From the NCBI GenBank assembly GCA_963727445.1, contig CAVSGI010000010.1:928001-992000 (forward strand): a stretch of DNA of 64,000 bases, given 5' to 3'. The stretch comes from an uncultured delta proteobacterium (lineage in GTDB: Bacteria > Myxococcota_A > Polyangia > Polyangiales > B10-G4). Both the position numbers and the translations under genes were made by a program. This document shows, piece by piece, positions 27,666 through 39,149 of this stretch. The notes beneath the pieces were generated by a model, which ran no database searches, was not told where the DNA came from, and saw only the letters and a list, made by a program, of their open reading frames with translations. Each line of letters starts with the position of its first letter. The stretch's first letter is position 1.

Positions 27666-29415
<1,750 letters not shown>

Positions 29416-29416
<1 letters not shown>

Positions 29417-30273
29417 TGTTCGAGACGGTTCGGGAATATCGGAGCTTCGGGGGCCGACAGCTCTTCCTGAAGCATCAATCGGAGCTCTGCGGCGGGCCGA
29501 TGGAGCTCTCCGTGTACCTGCCGCCCCAGGCCGAGCGCGAGAAGGTGCCGGTCGTGTACTGGCTCTCCGGGCTCACCTGCACGGCGGCGAACTTCACGGA
29601 GAAGGCGGGCGCGCAGCGCATGGCGGCGGCGCTGGGACTCGCCATCGTCTGCCCGGACACCAGCCCGCGCGGCGGCGGCTACCCAGGCGAGGACGACCAC
29701 TGGGACTTCGGCACCGGCGCCGGCTTCTACGTCGACGCCACCGAGGAGCCCTGGTCGCGCACCTACCAGATGTACTCGTACGTGACGCGCGAGCTGCCCG
29801 CGCTGATCGACTCCGAGTTGCCGACGCTGGGTGAGGGTCATCGCTCCATCTTCGGACACTCGATGGGTGGTCACGGCGCTCTGGTGATCGCCTTGCGGGA
29901 GCCGGAGCGCTGGCGATCGGTGTCGGCCTTCTCCCCGATCTGCGCGCCCACGCGCTGCCCCTGGGGCGTGAAGGCCTTCGGTGGATACCTCGGAGACGAC
30001 CGCGAGGCGTGGAGCTCCTACGACGCGAGCGCGCTGGTTCGCGAGTCGACCCATCCGATCACCATCCTCGTCGATCAGGGTCTCGCCGACGGGTTCCTCG
30101 AAGAGCAGCTCCGGCCAGAGCTCTTCGAAGACGCATGCAAGGCCGGTGGCCAGCGCCTGTCGCTCCGCCGCCACGAAGGCTACGACCACAGCTACTACTT
30201 CATCGCCAGCTTCGTGGAGGACCACCTCCGCCACCACGCCGCCGCGCTCAAGGGCCCGGCCGGCGCGCCCTGA
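29416..30273 (+). CDS. fghA: S-formylglutathione hydrolase
   Basis: WLSGLTCT, PDTSPRG, GAGFYVDAT, GHSMGG, GYDHSYYF; coupled to frmA. Confidence 0.97.
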
Positions 30274-32653: not shown

Positions 32654-33985
32654 TCAATGCGGTGGTGGAGCGTGTTCGAACTCTTCGTGCCGCGTGTGAT
32701 GCTCGGTGAGGTCGGCCTCGAGCGCGCGCCCGGCAGGGACCGAAGTGCGCGCGATGAGGCGCGCGCCGCGACGGAAGGTGATGTAGTTCCACCCCCAGTT
32801 GAGCAATACAGCCAGTCGGTTCCTGAAGCCGATCAGGAAGACGATGTGCACCACGAGCCAGGCGAGCCACGCGAGGTGCCCGGCGAGCTTCACATCACCG
32901 CTCTGGGCCACCGCGCGGGAGCGCCCGATGGTGGCCATGATGCCCTTGTCACGATAGCGGAACTCGGGACGCTGCCCGGCGGGCGTGCGCCAGCGGATGA
33001 CCTCGGCGACGTGACGTCCCATCTGAATGGCGACCTGCGCGACACCTGGCAGCGGTTGCCCCTCTTCGTCTTCGAAGTAGGCCATGTCGCCGATGACGAA
33101 GACATCCGGCCGGCCGGGAAGCGAGCAGTCCCGCTCCACCGTGACGCGCCCGCTCTTCATCGGCGCGTCGAGCTTCGACGCCAGACTCACCGGAGTGACG
33201 CCGCTCGCCCAACACACCACCGATGCCCGTACCCGCTCCGAGTCGACTTCGATGTAGCCGGCACCGATATCGGTCACCTTCTTTCCCGTCCACACCTCCA
33301 CATCGAGATCGGAGAGCGCCGCCTCTGCCTCGCGCGACAGAGACGCATCGAAGGGGGTGAGGACCCGGTCGGCCATCTCGACCAGGATCACGCGGATGGC
33401 GTCGGGATCGACGAGACGAAAGTCGTCCCGGATCGTCTTGCGAGACAGCTCGCTGAGGGCTCCCGCCGTCTCCACCCCGGTCGGCCCTCCGCCGATGACC
33501 ACGAAGGTCAGGAGCTCCGCGCGGTAGTCGTCATCGGGCTCCCGCTCCGCTTCCTCGAAGGCCATCAGGATTCGCTCACGAAGGGTCAGCGCGTCGCGCA
33601 GCGACTTCAGCCCCACCGCGTGCTCGGCCCACTCGTCATGTCCGAACCACGAGGTTTTCGCGCCGGCGGCGACCACCAGGTAGTCGTAGGCGATCTCGCT
33701 CGCCGCTCCCGAGAACGACTTTCTTCGCCTCTTTGTCGACGTCCACCACTTCGCCCATCAACACCTGCGTGTGCGGGTCGTGCCGAAGCACAGCGCGAAT
33801 CGGAATGGTGATGTCTCCCGGCGAAAGCCCTGCCGTCGCCACCTGGTAGAGGAGCGGTTGAAAGAGGTGGTGGTTCTCCCGATCGATCAGAGTGACGCGT
33901 ACGTCCTTCACGCGGCCCAGCGCCCGCGCCACCGCGAGGCCGCCGAAGCCGCCACCCACAATCACCACGTGCTTTTCCCCTCCAT
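32654..33985 (-). pseudogene. ndh: Type II NADH dehydrogenase, frameshifted (may be an assembly error)
   Basis: VIVGGGFGG and HLFQPLLYQVAT are in one frame; YDYLVVAAGA, GGGPTGVE and DKGIMATIGR are in another. Shift near 33698. A second apparent -1 lies in the GGGGAAAA run after ATG 33985. Confidence 0.85.
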
Positions 33986-34086: not shown

Positions 34087-35268
34087 GTGATCCGCATCGG
34101 AACGCCGAACACGCAGACGGAAACCAAGATGCTCCTGCTCGGCTCCGGAGAGCTCGGCAAGGAGGTCGCCCTCGAGGCCCAACGGCTCGGCGTGACCGTG
34201 GTGGCGGTCGATCGCTATCCGAACGCCCCCGCGATGCAGGTCGCGCACCGCAGTCACGTCATCTCGATGACCGACGCAGACGCGCTCCGAACGGTCATCG
34301 AAGAAGAGAAGCCGGACTTCGTCGTACCGGAGATCGAAGCGATCGCCACGCCCACGCTGATCGAGCTCGAGAGGGACGGCTTCCACGTGGTGCCCACCGC
34401 GCGTGCGGCGCGCCTCACCATGGACCGCGAGGGGATCCGCCGTCTGGCCGCCGAAGAGTTGAGCCTCCGGACGTCGCCCTACCGCTTCGCGGCGACGCGC
34501 GAGGAGTACGACGCCGCCATCGCCGAGATCGGGACGCCCTGCGTGGTGAAGCCGATCATGAGCAGCTCCGGCAAGGGGCAGAGCACGGTGAAGAGCGCCG
34601 AGGACGCAGGCGCGGCCTGGACCGCCGCTCAGGAAGGCGCGCGTGGGGGCGCAGGCAAGGTGATCGTCGAAGGCTTCGTAGACTTCGATTACGAGATCAC
34701 CCTGCTCACCGTGCGTCACGTCGGCGGCACCAGCTTCTGCGAGCCCATCGGGCACCGTCAGGTCGGCGGCGACTATCACGAGAGCTGGCAGCCGCAGCCG
34801 ATGAGCCCCGCAGCGCGCGCCGAAGCCGAGCGCATGGCCAAGGCGGTGACCGACGACGTGGGCGGGCGCGGCATCTTCGGCGTCGAGATGTTCGTCAAAG
34901 GCGACGAGGTCTGGTTCAGCGAGGTCTCGCCTCGTCCCCACGACACCGGGATGGTGACGATGATCACCCAGGACCTGTCGGAGTTCGCCCTCCACGTGCG
35001 CGCGATCCTCGGCCTGCCCATTCCCTCCATCCGACTGCACGGCCCCGGGGCCTCCGCGGTGATCCTCGGTGAAGGGAGCTCCGACGCGCCGGCCTTCGAG
35101 ATCGACGAGGCGGCCCTCGAAACGCCCGACACCCAGCTCCGCCTGTTCGGCAAGCCTCAGGTGCACGGCCACCGGCGCCTCGGCGTGGCCCTCGCGCGCG
35201 GCAAGGACATCGAGACGGCGCGCGCGGTCGCGACCAAGGCGGCTCGCCACGTGAAGGTAGTGCTCTGA
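34087..35268 (+). CDS. purT: Formate-dependent phosphoribosylglycinamide formyltransferase
   Basis: [63 protein letters not shown]. Confidence 0.98.
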
Positions 35269-37718
35269 GCGTTCGCTCGAAGGGGAGGCTCACGGCAGTC
35301 GTCGGGATCGCTCTCGGCATCGCCGCGAGCCTTCCCGGCGATGAAGCGGCCGCCGACGGGCCAGAGCCCACGGCGGTGTACGTGGGCGTGTACCTGCACG
35401 ACATCACCTCCTTCGATCAAAAGAACGGCGTCTTCGATGCCGACTTCGAGCTCTGGGCCAAATGGCGCGGCGAGCTCGACTACGAGAAGCTCGAGATCAC
35501 CAACGCCGGCGGCGTCGATCGCACCTTCGTCGGTCTGGACGACGACCACGGCTGGAAGTCGGCGCGCTGGCGCGTGCGGGGAACGCTGCGGGGCGAGTTC
35601 CCGCTTCACGCGTTCCCTTTCGACGAGCAGACGATCGCGGTGATCCTCGAGCTGCCCTCGGACGCGGGCCGCCTGGTCCCCGACCTCGCGTCGTCGGGGA
35701 TGGCAGAGCGCTTCAGCCTCACCGACTGGCACTACAACCCCGAGTTCGATCCGGATGTGAGCGAAGAGGTCTTCCCCTCCGACCTCGGCAACCTCGCACA
35801 CGAGGGAAGGCCCACCGAGGTGCGCCGCGTGGCCTACCAGGTCCGCCTCACGCGCCCCATCGTGCCGGTGATCCTCAAGCTCTTCCTGCCACTCGGCATC
35901 ATCATGCTGGTGGCCCTGGCGTCGCTCTTCGTCGCACCCGACCAGATCGAGGCGCGCTCAGCGATGGGCGTCACAGCCCTTCTCAGCTGCTTCGCGTTCC
36001 AGTTCACCATCTCCGACTCGCTGCCGGCTGTCGCGTACCTCACCCTCGCCGACAGCCTCTTCATCCTCGCCTATGTCGTCAGCACCGTGACCGTGGTGGT
36101 GACGATCGTGAGCTACGGTCTCGCCCACAAGGGCATGCACCGAGCGGCGATCTGGACCGACCGGGTCACCCGGGTCGCGGTGCCCATCGCTGCCGCGCTC
36201 GCGATCTGGGCGAACGTGCCCGAGCCAATCCCGCCGCGCGTGGCGGCACCGGACCCGCTCCCCGAGCTGCCGCGCCACGCGAGCGCCCGCGACGAGCTGA
36301 AGATCGGCACCAACGTCCTGACCACTGTGACCAGCAGCATCAACAGCTGGGGGCTGATCCACGAGGACTCCGAGCTTGGTAAGCAGGTGATCTTCGTCGA
36401 GCGCGCGCCCGGGGTCGACAACGACGCCATCCGCTTCCTCGCCGGCGGCGAGATCGAGGTCACCTGGCGCATCCGCGAGGGCGTCGCCTGGTCCGACGGA
36501 ACCGAAGTGAGCGCAGACGACGTCCTCTTCGCCCTCGAGCTGAGCCCCGAGCCGCACATCGTCGAGTCGACCTCGCCCGACCCGCGCACGGTGGTGCTCC
36601 GCTGGGACGAGCGACTGGCGAGCGCCCTCGAAGCGCCGTGGCTCTTGCCGCGTCACGTCCTCGAAGAGATCGCGAATGCGCCGGGTGAAGACGGTGAGCC
36701 CGGCGGCTACGACGCGGTGCGCGACTATCGCCGAGAACATCCGGTTCCGGTGCTGGGACCGTACCGCGTGGTCTCCTTCGAGAAGGAAGGGCGCCTGGTC
36801 GCCGAAGCGAACCCACACTTCATCGGCCCGGCGCCGAACATCGTGCGCTACGAGGTGATCCACTACGCAGATCGCGAAGCGGTGCGCGCCGCTTTCGAAG
36901 CCGGCGAGGTGGACATCACCTACCCGAACTCGCTCACCGTGGAGGACGCGGTGGCGCTGCAGCAAGCGCGACCGGACGCGGTCAGCATCGAGCCCTCGGC
37001 GATCCTGGTCTTCCTACAGCCCGATCTCTCGCTGCCACTCTTCTCCACCATCGAGGCGCGCCGAGCGGTGCTGATGGCCATCGACCGACAGCGCATCACC
37101 GACGTCAGCTACCCCGCCGATGCCGGCCGCGTCGCACACATTCCGGTGCCGGGCGAGCTCCCCGAAGGGACCGAGATCACGCCCTACGATCCCGACGCCG
37201 CGCGCGAGAAGATCCAAGAGCTTGGTCACGCCGGCACCACCATCGAGCTGACGTACGTCGCCTCGCCCACCAGCGACGCGGGCATCGACGTGATCGCGGA
37301 GAACCTGGCGGCGGTCGGTATCACCGTCGAGCGCAACACCGTGAGCAGCACGCTCAGTCTCTGGCGGAGCGGCGATCACGGCGGCCTACTGATGCACGTG
37401 CTTCGCGCCAGCCGCGAGTCGTCTCCCCCTCGCTACTGGGGCGTGCCCCTCGTCGACGGAAACTCCGATCCGGATTTTCGCTCCTCGGCGTACACAGACG
37501 AGATCCACGGGCTCGTGGAGCGCGAGCGTCGCGCGCTCTACCCCGAACGCCGCGACCAGCTCCGGGAGACCCTGCTCTCGAAGGTGTCGCAGAACCTGCC
37601 CATGCTGCCGATCATGTTCGCGCCGGAGCGGATCGCCCACGACCCGGCGTTGAAGAATTGGCGCAACGACGCCGAGGACTCCTTCGCGAGCAGCATCGAG
37701 CAGTGGTATTTCGAGTGA
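35265..37718 (+). CDS. Pentameric ligand-gated ion channel (Pro-loop) subunit fused to a C-terminal family-5 solute-binding domain
   Basis: Extracellular domain: [30 protein letters not shown] and Pro-loop LHAFPFDEQ; pre-M1 LTR; M1 KLFLP; M2 [17 protein letters not shown]2-M3 loop [12 protein letters not shown]4. Then SBP_bac_5 motifs [43 protein letters not shown]. Signal peptide begins at CTG 35265 (the ORF track starts at 35376). Confidence 0.88.
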
Positions 37719-37900
37719 GCTCGGCTTCGAAGATCGAAGTCGGCCTCTGTCTGAACTGCAGATGGGCGAAGGTCGTCGAGAGCGGCAAGGGCTCGCGCTT
37801 CTATCTCTGCAGGCGCGCCGCCACCGACCCACGCTTCCGAAAGTATCCGCAGCTCCCCGTGCTCGTTTGCGACGGCTTCACTCGAGCCACAGACGGATGA
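37715..37900 (+). CDS. Small 4-Cys protein (possible metal binding)
   Basis: GTGA overlap with the channel stop; VGLCLNC..GSRFYLC..DPRFRKYPQLPVLVCDGF. Confidence 0.7.
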   Translation: MSSASKIEVGLCLNCRWAKVVESGKGSRFYLCRRAATDPRFRKYPQLPVLVCDGFTRATDG

Positions 37901-39063
37901 CGCTCTCCTCGGCCGGGACGCCCACCCGCAAGGGGAAGCCGTAATGCCCGGTGCCCCTGTGGACGTAGAGGCGGTCGCGCCCGCGCGCCCAGAGCCCATG
38001 ATCGGGCATCGAGGTCAGACCGCTCACGAAGGTCCAGGCGAGCCCGAGGCTCACCAGACCGACCTGTCCGCCGTGGGTGTGGCCGCTGAAGACGATGTCG
38101 CCCTCGCCCTCGGGCAGGTGCTTGAAAGCGCCCGGGTCGTGTAGGAGCACCACGCGGAGATGGCCCGGGCGCCGCGGGAAGCGAGCGGTGAGAGCGCGCA
38201 AGTGCTCGGCGCGCCCGCGCCACGCGAAGTCAGAGCCGACGATCTGCACAGGCCCCGCCTCGGTCCGCACCACCGCCTCCTGATCGACGAGGAGCTCGAT
38301 CCCGTGCGCGCGGCAGGCGTCGCGCACGATGCCCGGGGCCTCGTGATCGTGGTTTCCAAAGCACGCGAAGACGCGCCCCGTCGCGGCCGCGAGCGGCGCG
38401 AGCGCCTCGTTCAGGTATCGCGGGTCAGCCTGCGACTCCATCGTCATGAAGTCTCCAGTGAGCAGGATCAGATCGGGGTCGCGCGCCACCGCCCGCTCGC
38501 AGAATCCTCCGAAGGCGGCCGACCGACATGAAGGGACCGAGATGAGGATCGGTGATCTGGACGACGCGCAGAGGACGTCCTTCGGAGGACGCCTCGCTTC
38601 GATGCTTCGGATGGCGGGTGACGGCTTCACTGGTCTCTTTCCGGTCGATCCGCAGGTCCACCTCTTCGAAGCTCATCCACATCGATTGCAGGACGCCGAC
38701 GCCGGCGATGGCGAAGGGAAGCCAGGTCGCGATGGGGTCGAAACCGAAGGCCGCCGCCACGGCCCAGGGGATGGCGAAGGTGGTGCCCGCGGCGAAGAAG
38801 CTCCCGGGCACGCTCACCACAAAGCGCCACCAGGTCGGACGCATCCGAGCCCAGATCAGCGATCCGAAGTGGAGAAAGACCGCCCCGTGCATCCAGGCGT
38901 AGACCGGCCAGACCCACGCCGCCTCGGTGAACAGGGCAGTGGCCGAGAGGCCCTCGATGCCGAGGATGATGGCCGCAAAGGTCGCGAAGAAGCGGCCGCG
39001 AAAGAGCCACGCCACCCCCACTACGAGCAGCCAACCGAGCCCGGTCGCGATCGAGAACGCCAT
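37878..39063 (-). pseudogene. Membrane-anchored metallophosphoesterase (YkuE/YaeI-like), frameshifted (may be an assembly error)
   Basis: TM region and QITDPHLG are in one frame; TGDF, GNHD, LLHDP, SGHTHGGQ are in another. Shift at about 38503-38513. Confidence 0.85.
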
Positions 39064-39149
39064 GGGGCCCCGAGATTGTGGTGTCCGAAGGCGCGACGGC
39101 AACCCGTCTTTTCTGGCCGCCGGCGCTCCGGTCGCGTAATGATCGGGGG

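Follow-up and report, generated by a model that had tools for sequence, protein, structure and literature searches.

What is a protein that begins as a bacterial neurotransmitter-receptor homologue and ends as a nutrient-binding protein? [quoted passage not shown] On balance, sequence and structure models tip modestly toward a predicted homopentameric inner-membrane channel that uses its own tethered SBP to sense a solute in the periplasm. The predicted channel is probably cation-selective.

The gene is a single stop-free frame from 35265 to 37715 encoding 817 aa (Table 1). AlphaFold2 modelled the whole fusion protein with a pLDDT of 92.1, a pTM of 0.84 and an ordered linker. The open reading frame list starts the gene at GTG 35376, which would remove the signal peptide. 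We place the start at a CTG that overlaps the TGA stop of purT (CTGA), 6 nt after GAAGGT. A homologue at 73% identity (locus L001) likewise has no start candidates other than CTG 5' of its signal peptide, and 201 of 209 family rows scored have a hydrophobic N-terminal stretch.

Table 1. Features of the fusion gene, with positions in the window
Feature	Residues	Position	Strand	Basis and remarks
Whole gene, pLGIC-SBP5 fusion	1-817	35265..37718	+	CTG start, TGA stop; sequence and model
Possible ribosome-binding site GAAGGT		35253..35258	+	Within purT end, 6 nt 5' of CTG; sequence
Signal peptide	1 to ~30	35265..35354	+	Cleavage presumably after AAA; model helix 7-21
pLGIC extracellular beta-sandwich	37-197	35373..35855	+	Pro-loop FPFDEQ; coupling residues D51/D120/R197
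Loop C	170-186	35772..35822	+	Near-invariant S-D-L/F-G-x4-E-G; ELIC F188-equivalent aromatic lost
M1, with P209	199-222	35859..35930	+	Model; P209 in 214/214 rows
Pore helix M2	228-252	35946..36020	+	Alignment to GLIC; conservation
M3	259-288	36039..36128	+	Model
M4, periplasmic-side exit	292-317	36138..36215	+	Model; topology
Pro-rich linker	318-341	36216..36287	+	24% Pro
Family-5 (cluster C) solute-binding domain, 476 aa	342-817	36288..37715	+	Pfam PF00496, E 7.7e-40
Conserved L-Y-P-E-R-R turn of SBP	758-763	37536..37553	+	Candidate docking patch

The fusion is real and old. Local indels give some ground for suspecting an assembly chimera or indel artefact, as the metallophosphoesterase gene downstream is spread over two frames (it is intact in L001) and ndh is split. 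Against this, 119 other proteins match at 44–85% identity, each covering at least 95%; 64 of 72 genome loci, mostly from Myxococcota MAGs, hold both halves; and a same-genus genome carries an intact copy at 73%. Independent assemblies bearing the same fusion refute the artefact, which we regard as vanishingly improbable. Fused members form one clade in the tree (support 0.973), and by their sequences the fused form is one old clade. Eleven short SBP matches have an identity of 43% or above, and each starts in the channel, in the linker or within the SBP; free SBPs reach 23–34% identity to the fused SBP and no higher. Matches occur in 46 plasmid records, none of them extending across 80% of the query, and the eight listed cover the SBP part only. 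Two DNA sequencing runs match in small shares, with no RNA run among the matches listed. Read contigs include two identical pieces inside the gene (35825–36099 and 36604–36841); no piece bridges the junction among the read-contig matches listed, and with 95 further pieces beyond that listing the read contigs weigh neither way on the fusion. No solved chain spans both channel and SBP among the structure matches listed.

The N-terminal half is a complete pLGIC subunit. Every motif named by the first-pass annotation was located in the translation: F117-P-F-D-E-Q122, the M1 proline P209, R231 (0') and L240 (9') in M2, and L253-P-A-V-A-Y-L-T260. Residues 31–321 of the model, as that annotation had anticipated, adopt the pLGIC fold, aligning to GluCl (Z 17.2, rmsd 3.3, 276 residues), GLIC (Z 17.0, 277 residues) and GABA-A (Z 16.9); folded from the single sequence, the channel part modelled poorly (pLDDT 50.6). 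The expected Pfam architecture was recovered in part: SBP_bac_5 matched at 399–705 (E 7.7e-40), whereas Neur_chan_memb (PF02932) matched 210–298 below its curated cut-off (E 0.0037, 18 bits against 28.1) and the Pfam scan gave no match to Neur_chan_LBD (PF02931). Because the curated Pfam cut-offs for the channel domains were not reached, channel identity rests on the fold comparison, a phmmer match of residues 53–313 to GLIC (E 1.5e-11) and the NCBIfam LGIC_1 profile (E 1.6e-16, itself under cut-off; NF033918, 60.6 against 500). Some homologues pass PF02932, among them P0159 at 51.3 bits, and we read the low profile scores as divergence rather than non-membership. "Cys-loop-type" applies in the broad pLGIC sense and fails in the strict, animal sense, residues 37–197 being free of cysteine. 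Since the cysteine pair is missing from the loop, the channel is a Pro-loop receptor.

Conservation fits a functioning pore. Core residues are nearly invariant among 214 rows (P118, D120 and R197 in 213 each, P209 and P254 in 214 each), and the narrow-gate residues are kept (L240 in 193, A244 in 211, F247 in 178). With M2 positions numbered from -2' to 20' by the usual convention, the helix carries E229 (-2'), R231 (0'), T237 (6'), L240 (9'), A244 (13'), F247 (16') and D251 (20'). Mean pairwise identity is 49% for the channel and 37% for the SBP, which exceeds the channel in 0.3% of pairs; a working channel, rather than a simple anchor, would be expected to show this. The predicted periplasmic location of the SBP held up: 211 of 214 rows have no hydrophobic segment past M4, and the M3–M4 loop is basic. 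The pLGIC gene is single in the genome of the window organism, as in nine of ten carrier genomes.

The C-terminal half retains an entire binding-protein fold without the OppA-type motif. The in-frame SBP5 domain proposed earlier scores 137.6 bits against a PF00496 cut-off of 32.4, and its model has the full cluster-C fold (5u4o: Z 28.4, 435 aligned, rmsd 3.5). Its nearest solved sequence is Thermus thermophilus OppA (2d5w, E 1.3e-34). The assignment as a peptide-binding domain found no support. The OppA-type G-W-x-x-D motif is missing, with Trp at 710–716 in 0 of 214 rows, and NCBIfam OppA, DppA and NikA scores fall far under cut-off. The R-x-G-W-x-x-D strand of OppA holds the peptide; in a profile alignment to E. 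coli OppA the G-W is unmatched and R717 lies near the Asp, in a low-confidence stretch. This Arg where OppA has Asp leans us faintly toward a small polar or anionic solute or a metal chelate over an OppA-type peptide. In structural alignments its identity to solved SBPs, whose specificities differ widely, does not exceed 20%, and no common ligand is evident because strand 710–720 is variable and partly gapped across the family. The E761-R762 pair was considered as a family-specific feature, a candidacy weakened by the stand-alone T. thermophilus OppA, which shares P-E-R-R.

The same variability could mean that the SBP binds no small solute and is a structural, protein-binding or cell-wall-binding appendage that shuts or localises the channel. 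The partial deletion of the ligand strand, its want of Trp and the faster evolution of the SBP than of the channel fit such an appendage. Retention of the whole fold and of family-specific conserved residues such as R450, H705, W725 and W799 speaks against it, and we consider it improbable. SBP5 proteins that differ in specificity ordinarily have variable pockets.

The fusion is, from its genomic surroundings, a stand-alone gene. The earlier observation that no ABC permease or ATPase lies nearby was borne out among the 19 other window proteins scanned, and no Opp permease appeared among 125 flanking or recurrent proteins. A motif scan of 723 open reading frames in 73 loci found three ATPases, of which two were of ABC-F type and the third sat close to an FtsX-type permease. 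The sole binding-protein-dependent permease in that scan (L068) is an OpuAC fusion that brings a binding domain of its own. The linked permease and ATPase of an Opp, Dpp or Nik importer were therefore absent from the 125 neighbours and 73 loci. No neighbour gene is conserved, the largest shared cluster reaching 11 of 73 loci (its scanned member is a Ser/Thr kinase), so the neighbourhood yields no clue to the ligand. Alternatively, the pentamer might anchor five SBPs that feed an Opp/Dpp permease encoded elsewhere, or deliver solute via its own pore. A partner in trans does exist, since all ten carrier genomes tested have Opp-type ATPases and nine have an OppB-type permease. Seven of the nine OppB-bearing genomes, however, have a free SBP5 within 2 kb of OppB, no Opp permease is among the 125 neighbouring proteins scanned, and the pore retains the narrow gate of L240, A244 and F247. 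A transport role thus seems very improbable.

The fused clade has lost the agonist site of its relatives. We compared 57 fused channels with the 66 nearest unfused full channels, presuming the equivalences to ELIC E77, E131 and Y175 from motif and residue numbering. The losses, whose counts are not independent because they record one evolutionary event on one branch, affect an aromatic at 186 (ELIC F188; 0/57 fused against 59/66 unfused), at 62 (ELIC Y38; 12/57 against 60/66) and at 99 (0/57 against 50/66), together with Glu at 77 (7/57 against 48/66) and at 129 (21/57 against 54/66, though in the larger set 153 of 214 rows retain the Glu). Equivalents of F19 and Y175 are kept in 53/57 and 38/57. 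E77, E131, Y38, Y175 and F188 are ligand residues of ELIC (PMC3316889). The aromatic cage and acidic interface residues of an ELIC-like amine-gated channel are not found together in the fused clade, whereas relatives with an N-terminal binding domain retain both aromatics (16/19 each). Because the channel has lost its relatives' transmitter-binding residues, the tethered SBP probably does the sensing.

The outer face of the channel has clade-specific gains. Fused members carry E180 (53/57 against 1/66 unfused), W97 (57/57 against 16/66) and P159 (46/57 against 0/66, a contrast that may partly be alignment register as positions 157–161 lie at an insertion). In the larger set, the near-invariant loop-C gains D173 and E180 are each present in 210/214 rows, R103 (GLIC R105) is kept in 199/214 and R101 is gained in 177/214. 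Given these two arginines, the old interface site may have taken on a different ligand. Gating might then be by protons, by divalent ions or by an anionic ligand at the remodelled interface, with the SBP an accessory that only tunes it or concentrates the ligand and passes it on. GLIC, which like the fused clade is poor in such aromatics and lacks the cage, is gated by protons, and carboxylates bind it close to R77, R105 and E181; in the sections consulted, the extra domain of DeCLIC influences kinetics only, and pre-concentration and hand-over by binding-protein partners were proposed in 2005 (Tasneem et al. 2005, PMC549065). The canonical site, however, is lost in the fused clade alone and kept in relatives with N-terminal binding domains, and the fusion appears obligate, with a constrained linker length (P307 to R346 spans 37–39 residues in 168/214 rows). 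We rate a modulatory SBP, the leading alternative, as rather unlikely.

Complex prediction bears on whether the tethered SBP docks on the channel. Channel (33–320) and SBP (336–817) scored 0.55 against 0.00 for the best of three controls; runs agreed in at least 81% of contacts, with partner pLDDT of at least 84. Of 157 solved pairs 116 attained that mark, as did 2 of 215 mismatched ones; at scores of 0.60 or below, however, only 18 of the solved pairs did so, alongside both mismatches. These predictions weakly suggest docking, at a site that is a candidate only. Mean-field coevolution over 214 rows (effective number 156) returned mostly noise, impossible membrane–SBP pairs included. Within the candidate docking turn, L758 is conserved in 195, Y or F759 in 209 and R762 in 211 of 214 rows. 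In three divergent members loss of loop-C D173 accompanies loss of R762, but P0197 has lost D173 and E180 while keeping E-R-R.

In the favoured reading, a sensing channel, five subunits would assemble into a homopentamer, as suggested by the fusion usually being the sole pLGIC gene in its genome. Five SBPs would ring the outside of the extracellular domain, docking near the beta9/loop C face. Solute binding would close the SBP, closure would move loop C, the M4 end beside the Pro-loop, or both, and this movement would open the hydrophobic 9'/16' gate. Cation selectivity would come from acidic rings at -2' and 20', so the output would be depolarisation, or cation entry as a signal. Ionotropic glutamate receptors offer an analogy, in that their pore opens when a clam-shell of periplasmic-binding-protein type, connected to the membrane helices, closes. 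A bolder version, tentative and in our view doubtful, is that the agonist site is wholly abandoned and opening comes solely from five C-terminal SBP5 clam-shells closing, the L-Y-P-E-R turn then acting toward loop C like a ligand on a tether, with R762 paired to D173 or E180.

The fusion resembles known systems in its parts and departs from them in their order. It shares the fold, the Pro-loop, an acidic residue before M2 and hydrophobic 9' and 16' positions with GLIC and ELIC, which are about 22% identical and have no accessory domain; the amine-binding residues of ELIC are missing from it. Free family-5 SBPs (2d5w, AppA, DppA, NikA, AapF, AccA) have the same full cluster-C fold (Z 25–28), whereas the fused SBP is tied to a channel, without a linked permease, at most 34% identical and lacking G-W-x-x-D. 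Prokaryotic pLGICs with PBP-I or Cache/MCP-N fusions, and operonic PBP-II partners, are described in the consulted text of Tasneem et al. (2005, PMC549065) as a pLGIC core with a periplasmic solute-binding module, predicted to be homopentameric chemoreceptors. Their fused modules lie between signal peptide and channel; here a family-5 (cluster C) module follows M4, and the aromatic site that the N-terminally fused relatives keep is gone. DeCLIC, also a multidomain bacterial pLGIC with extra periplasmic domains, has N-terminal jelly-roll lobes that pack around the outside of the extracellular domain and modulate kinetics, in the parts of PMC9897478 and PMC12664993 consulted, in contrast to the C-terminal clam-shell here. 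The likeness to ionotropic glutamate receptors would be mechanistic only: their ligand domains are likewise derived from periplasmic binding proteins (PMC549065, in part), of another class, on an unrelated tetrameric pore.

What looks new is the post-M4 placement of an SBP5 domain and the loss of the agonist site. The first-pass annotation's view that known accessory domains are N-terminal holds for the consulted parts of PMC549065 and the DeCLIC literature, and the post-M4 SBP5 form was absent from the literature searched; Hu et al. 2020 (PNAS, DeCLIC) and Howard 2021 (J Mol Biol) lie outside that search and may list it. Its call of an undescribed system stands for the architecture and not for the partnership of binding protein and pLGIC, which was predicted in 2004, when N-terminal fusions were described.

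In the fused family a putative sensor at M4 goes together with the plain disappearance of the usual agonist site. In the bacterial pLGIC literature covered, accessory domains are N-terminal and their roles largely unknown; the C-terminal end of M4 touches the Pro-loop and is functionally important in GLIC and alpha7 (PMC9221113). Ligand screens can deorphanise an SBP by itself, so that the natural stimulus of bacterial pLGICs can be tested directly. Pore gating by SBP closure, if true, would give a major drug-target superfamily an allosteric route of a new kind and would offer a natural model for engineering ligand-gated channels. Were clam-shell closure the only trigger, a Cys-loop-type scaffold would have acquired gating in the style of glutamate receptors by independent evolution, with a ligand specificity that can be exchanged. 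For myxobacteria, the favoured reading, if true, would mean an ionotropic chemosensor.

The pLGIC-SBP5 architecture is real and conserved. Translation of one stop-free frame yields 817 residues, and sequence matches to both parts (table) agree with the first-pass annotation, which read the gene as a complete channel subunit continuing in frame into a family-5 solute-binding protein (SBP5). By modelled fold and motifs, the protein belongs to the pLGIC superfamily. Modelling with AlphaFold2 on an alignment of 118 sequences gave pLDDT 92.1 and pTM 0.84. Against 48,161 representative chains, residues 31-321 matched GluCl (Z 17.2), GLIC (Z 17.0) and GABA-A (Z 16.9), bearing out that the N-terminal half models as a pLGIC, and residues 339-817 matched family-5 SBPs (best Z 28.4); none of the best 50 matches listed spanned both. 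The SBP is predicted to be periplasmic, as first proposed, because the M3-M4 loop averages 4.6 Lys/Arg across the family alignment and only 3/214 rows have a hydrophobic window beyond residue 326. The CTG start overlaps the purT stop codon, with GAAGGT 6 nt upstream, and is probably real, since a 73% identical homologue from the same clade (locus L001) also has only CTG candidates ahead of its signal peptide. Gene callers place both starts downstream, losing the signal peptide.

Coordinates of the fusion protein, its relatives and nearby or related genes
Feature	Position	Remarks
Fusion gene frame	window 35265-37715 (+)	CTG at 35265
L001 start candidates	L001:408	CTG
SBP_bac_5 (PF00496)	residues 399-705	Pfam, E 7.7e-40
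Neur_chan_memb	residues 210-298	Pfam, below threshold
GLIC match	residues 53-313	phmmer vs PDB, E 1.5e-11
Modelled beta-sandwich	residues 37-196	after signal helix
Modelled helices	residues 199-222, 228-252, 259-288, 292-317	then extended linker, SBP
Type II NADH dehydrogenase (ndh)	window 32654-33968 (-)	two frames, 33636-33968 and 32654-33676
Membrane-anchored metallophosphoesterase	window 37878-39102 (-)	two frames; intact in L001
Zinc alcohol dehydrogenase, then esterase	window 28304-30273 (+)	ordinary
SBP5 in two frames adjoining OppC-like gene	G000:C27:214336-215491	own genome
Opp-type ATPase pair	G000:C10:52896-54073	own genome
OppB	G000:C15:387813-388112	own genome
OpuAC binding domain fused to ABC permease	L068:11668-13581	1.3 kb downstream of family member; L068 only
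Several-frame or partial copies of fused gene	G070:C139:25422-27902; L071:7761-10457; L072:4377-4556	pseudogenes or assembly errors
pLGICs with N-terminal NMT1_3		P0184, P0185, P0186, P0190, P0198, P0205, P0219, P0240, P0253, P0254

Homologues across many assemblies carry the same fusion. Scoring 8000 candidate proteins gave 205 matches; apart from the window's own protein, the 120 listed comprise 119 that share 44-85% identity with it along 95-100% of its length, all with PF00496. Both halves, from the extracellular domain through residue 785 or further, are present in 64 of 72 genome loci; seven others stop at contig ends and one (L072) matches only residues 30-89. The assembly does have indels near the gene, which split the metallophosphoesterase and ndh reading frames, but set against these homologues the probability that the fusion is a chimeric assembly artefact is close to nil. 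The split ndh is likely an indel error or pseudogene.

The gene is patchily distributed. All 72 locus records are MAGs, labelled as Myxococcota groups (57), Deltaproteobacteria (6), Proteobacteria (3), Rickettsiales (3), Verrucomicrobiales (2) or unclassified (1). The Rickettsiales-labelled (L003, L004, L024; 53-54% identity) and Verrucomicrobiales-labelled (L042, L043; 40%) homologues reflect either mislabelled bins or gene transfer. Full-length copies occur in at least 8 of 401 genomes sampled from the phylum, own genome counted, a floor because the initial look was stricter, and in 2/40 relatives. An ESM Atlas cluster of 171 members bears an automatic two-domain name.

Fused channels form a single clade, and the fusion looks obligate. 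When only the channel part served as query, 150 representatives were listed, from which 123 near-complete channels were kept and 27 partial ones dropped; an SBP follows M4 in 56 but not in 67. All 57 fused channels (query included) group with P0125, a fragment ending within the channel (FastTree support 0.973, two rootings). Two dropped rows, P0171 and P0257, stop 19 and 32 residues past M4 and are taken as putative fragments. An SBP-only search restricted to 220-700 aa gave 82 matches, the first 22 checked by eye: the 11 with at least 43% identity begin in the channel, in the linker or within the SBP, and the remaining 71 share 23-34% identity. Among 24 longer unfused relatives scanned, ten carry N-terminal NMT1_3, which we take to be a TAXI-type binding domain, and nine N-terminal Peripla_BP_6. 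One pLGIC, P0256 (1060 aa), has N-terminal Peripla_BP_6 and ~325 residues after M4 without a Pfam match shown there, a second C-terminal extension unrelated to the SBP5 one.

Coupling and pore residues are near-invariant. Across the 214 rows, which retain some redundancy (effective number 156), P118, D120 and R197 each occur in 213 and P209 and P254 in all; the pore face comprises T237 (205), L240 (193), A244 (211) and F247 (178, plus Tyr in 24). Acidic residues at 229, aligned to GLIC E222 (174/214), and at 251 (169/214) point to cation selectivity. On average, pairs of members are 49% identical in the channel, 54% in the extracellular domain and 37% in the SBP. No pLGIC besides the fused gene was found in its own genome (85.6% complete) or in 9/10 carriers, which suggests a homopentamer.

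The fused clade has lost much of the agonist site. ELIC ligand residues include E77, E131, F133, Y175, F188, Y38 and F19 (PMC3316889); an unfused relative aligns Y-S-R with ELIC F188-S-R and a loop-D Tyr with Y38. Fused and unfused channels differ in aromatics at 186 (0/57 vs 59/66), 62 (12/57 vs 60/66) and 99 (0/57 vs 50/66), in Glu77 (7/57 vs 48/66) and in Glu129 (21/57 vs 54/66; commoner in the larger set, 153/214), changes that arose once, on one branch, which cautions against over-reading the counts. In relatives with an N-terminal binding domain both aromatics are retained, in 16/19 cases each, and equivalents of ELIC F19 and Y175 persist in 53/57 and 38/57 fused channels. Gains are W97 (57/57 vs 16/66), E180 (53/57 vs 1/66), R109 (54/57 vs 25/66), R101 (41/57 vs 0/66) and a Y157-x-P159-x-F161 motif. 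Because GLIC, likewise without an aromatic cage, binds carboxylates near R77, R105 and E181 (PMC10859675), the old site may be remodelled rather than abandoned. That the SBP modulates, or hands ligand over to, a GLIC-like channel is conceivable, if unlikely.

The SBP fold is complete. Among solved sequences, T. thermophilus OppA comes closest (E 1.3e-34), then CtaP, AapF and AppA, while binders of nickel, opines and sialic acid rank only a little lower; since these near relatives vary in specificity, homology names no ligand. The strand matching OppA A-R-A-G-W-C-A-D is variable, has gaps in roughly one quarter to one third of the rows, and contains Trp in none of the 214; Arg occurs at 717 in 130. 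We consider it improbable that the SBP is a non-binding appendage.

The top-conserved candidate surface of the SBP is L758-Y/F759-P-E761-R762; however, T. thermophilus OppA shares the P-E-R-R. D173 and R762 are both missing from three divergent members, but P0197 lacks D173 and E180 and still has E-R-R. The distance from P307 to R346 amounts to 37-39 residues in 168/214 rows. Folded as separate chains, channel and SBP scored 0.55 (contact agreement at least 81%, partner pLDDT at least 84), and the highest-scoring of 3 controls 0.00. The score lies in a range, 0.60 or below, where calibration placed passes for 18 of 157 solved pairs and for both of 2 mismatched pairs that passed. This hints at contact between the chains, which are halves of one gene. 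The structural matches listed include no comparable solved complex.

Genomic context makes a transport role highly improbable. Clustering 723 ORFs from 73 loci gave no conserved neighbour, and the reported lack of a nearby ABC permease or ATPase extends to 125 flanking or recurrent proteins scanned (117 of 129 immediate neighbours, 8 cluster representatives). Scanning the 73 loci for motifs turned up three ABC ATPases belonging to other types, plus a single glycine-betaine permease that itself carries a binding domain. Opp-type ATPases (10/10 carrier genomes tested) and OppB (9/10) offer possible partners in trans, but 7 of the 9 OppB-bearing carriers encode a free SBP5 no more than 2 kb from an OppB. 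In the own genome, Opp-type parts are dispersed over three contigs. The metallophosphoesterase also adjoins the channel gene downstream in L001. The alcohol dehydrogenase and esterase presumably resemble a glutathione-dependent formaldehyde detoxification pair.

We lean towards a sensor in which solute binding would close the tethered SBP, the closed SBP would act either on loop C/beta9 or, next to the Pro-loop, on the end of M4, and this action would open the cation pore. The data establish the architecture, its conservation and the loss of agonist-site residues, from which assembly, docking site, ligand, selectivity and gating are inferred. Contacts between M4 and the Pro-loop are important for GLIC and alpha7 but not for every receptor (PMC9221113).

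The architecture is apparently undescribed: no account of a post-M4 SBP5-pLGIC was found in the literature sought for it, coverage of which was incomplete, in keeping with the first-pass view that it was not already characterised. The part of Tasneem 2005 (PMC549065) consulted reports N-terminal PBP-I, MCP-N and Cache fusions and operonic PBP-II genes, and does not name the NMT1_3 fusion. Jaiteh 2016 (PMC4795631), in the text available, mentions foreign regions sometimes after M4, discarded there; in the portion seen of its alignment supplement, the channel begins past residue 400 in the four binding-protein-named entries shown, and one Plesiocystis entry is unlike the fused clade in the part compared. 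The available parts of the DeCLIC papers (PMC12664993, PMC9897478) and of a 2022 review mention no extra domains other than N-terminal ones. The pLGIC-SBP5 fusion is a variant on the known theme of binding-protein-coupled pLGICs, with its SBP after M4, whereas the extra domains of DeCLIC and the binding-protein fusions in those parts of Tasneem 2005 are N-terminal.
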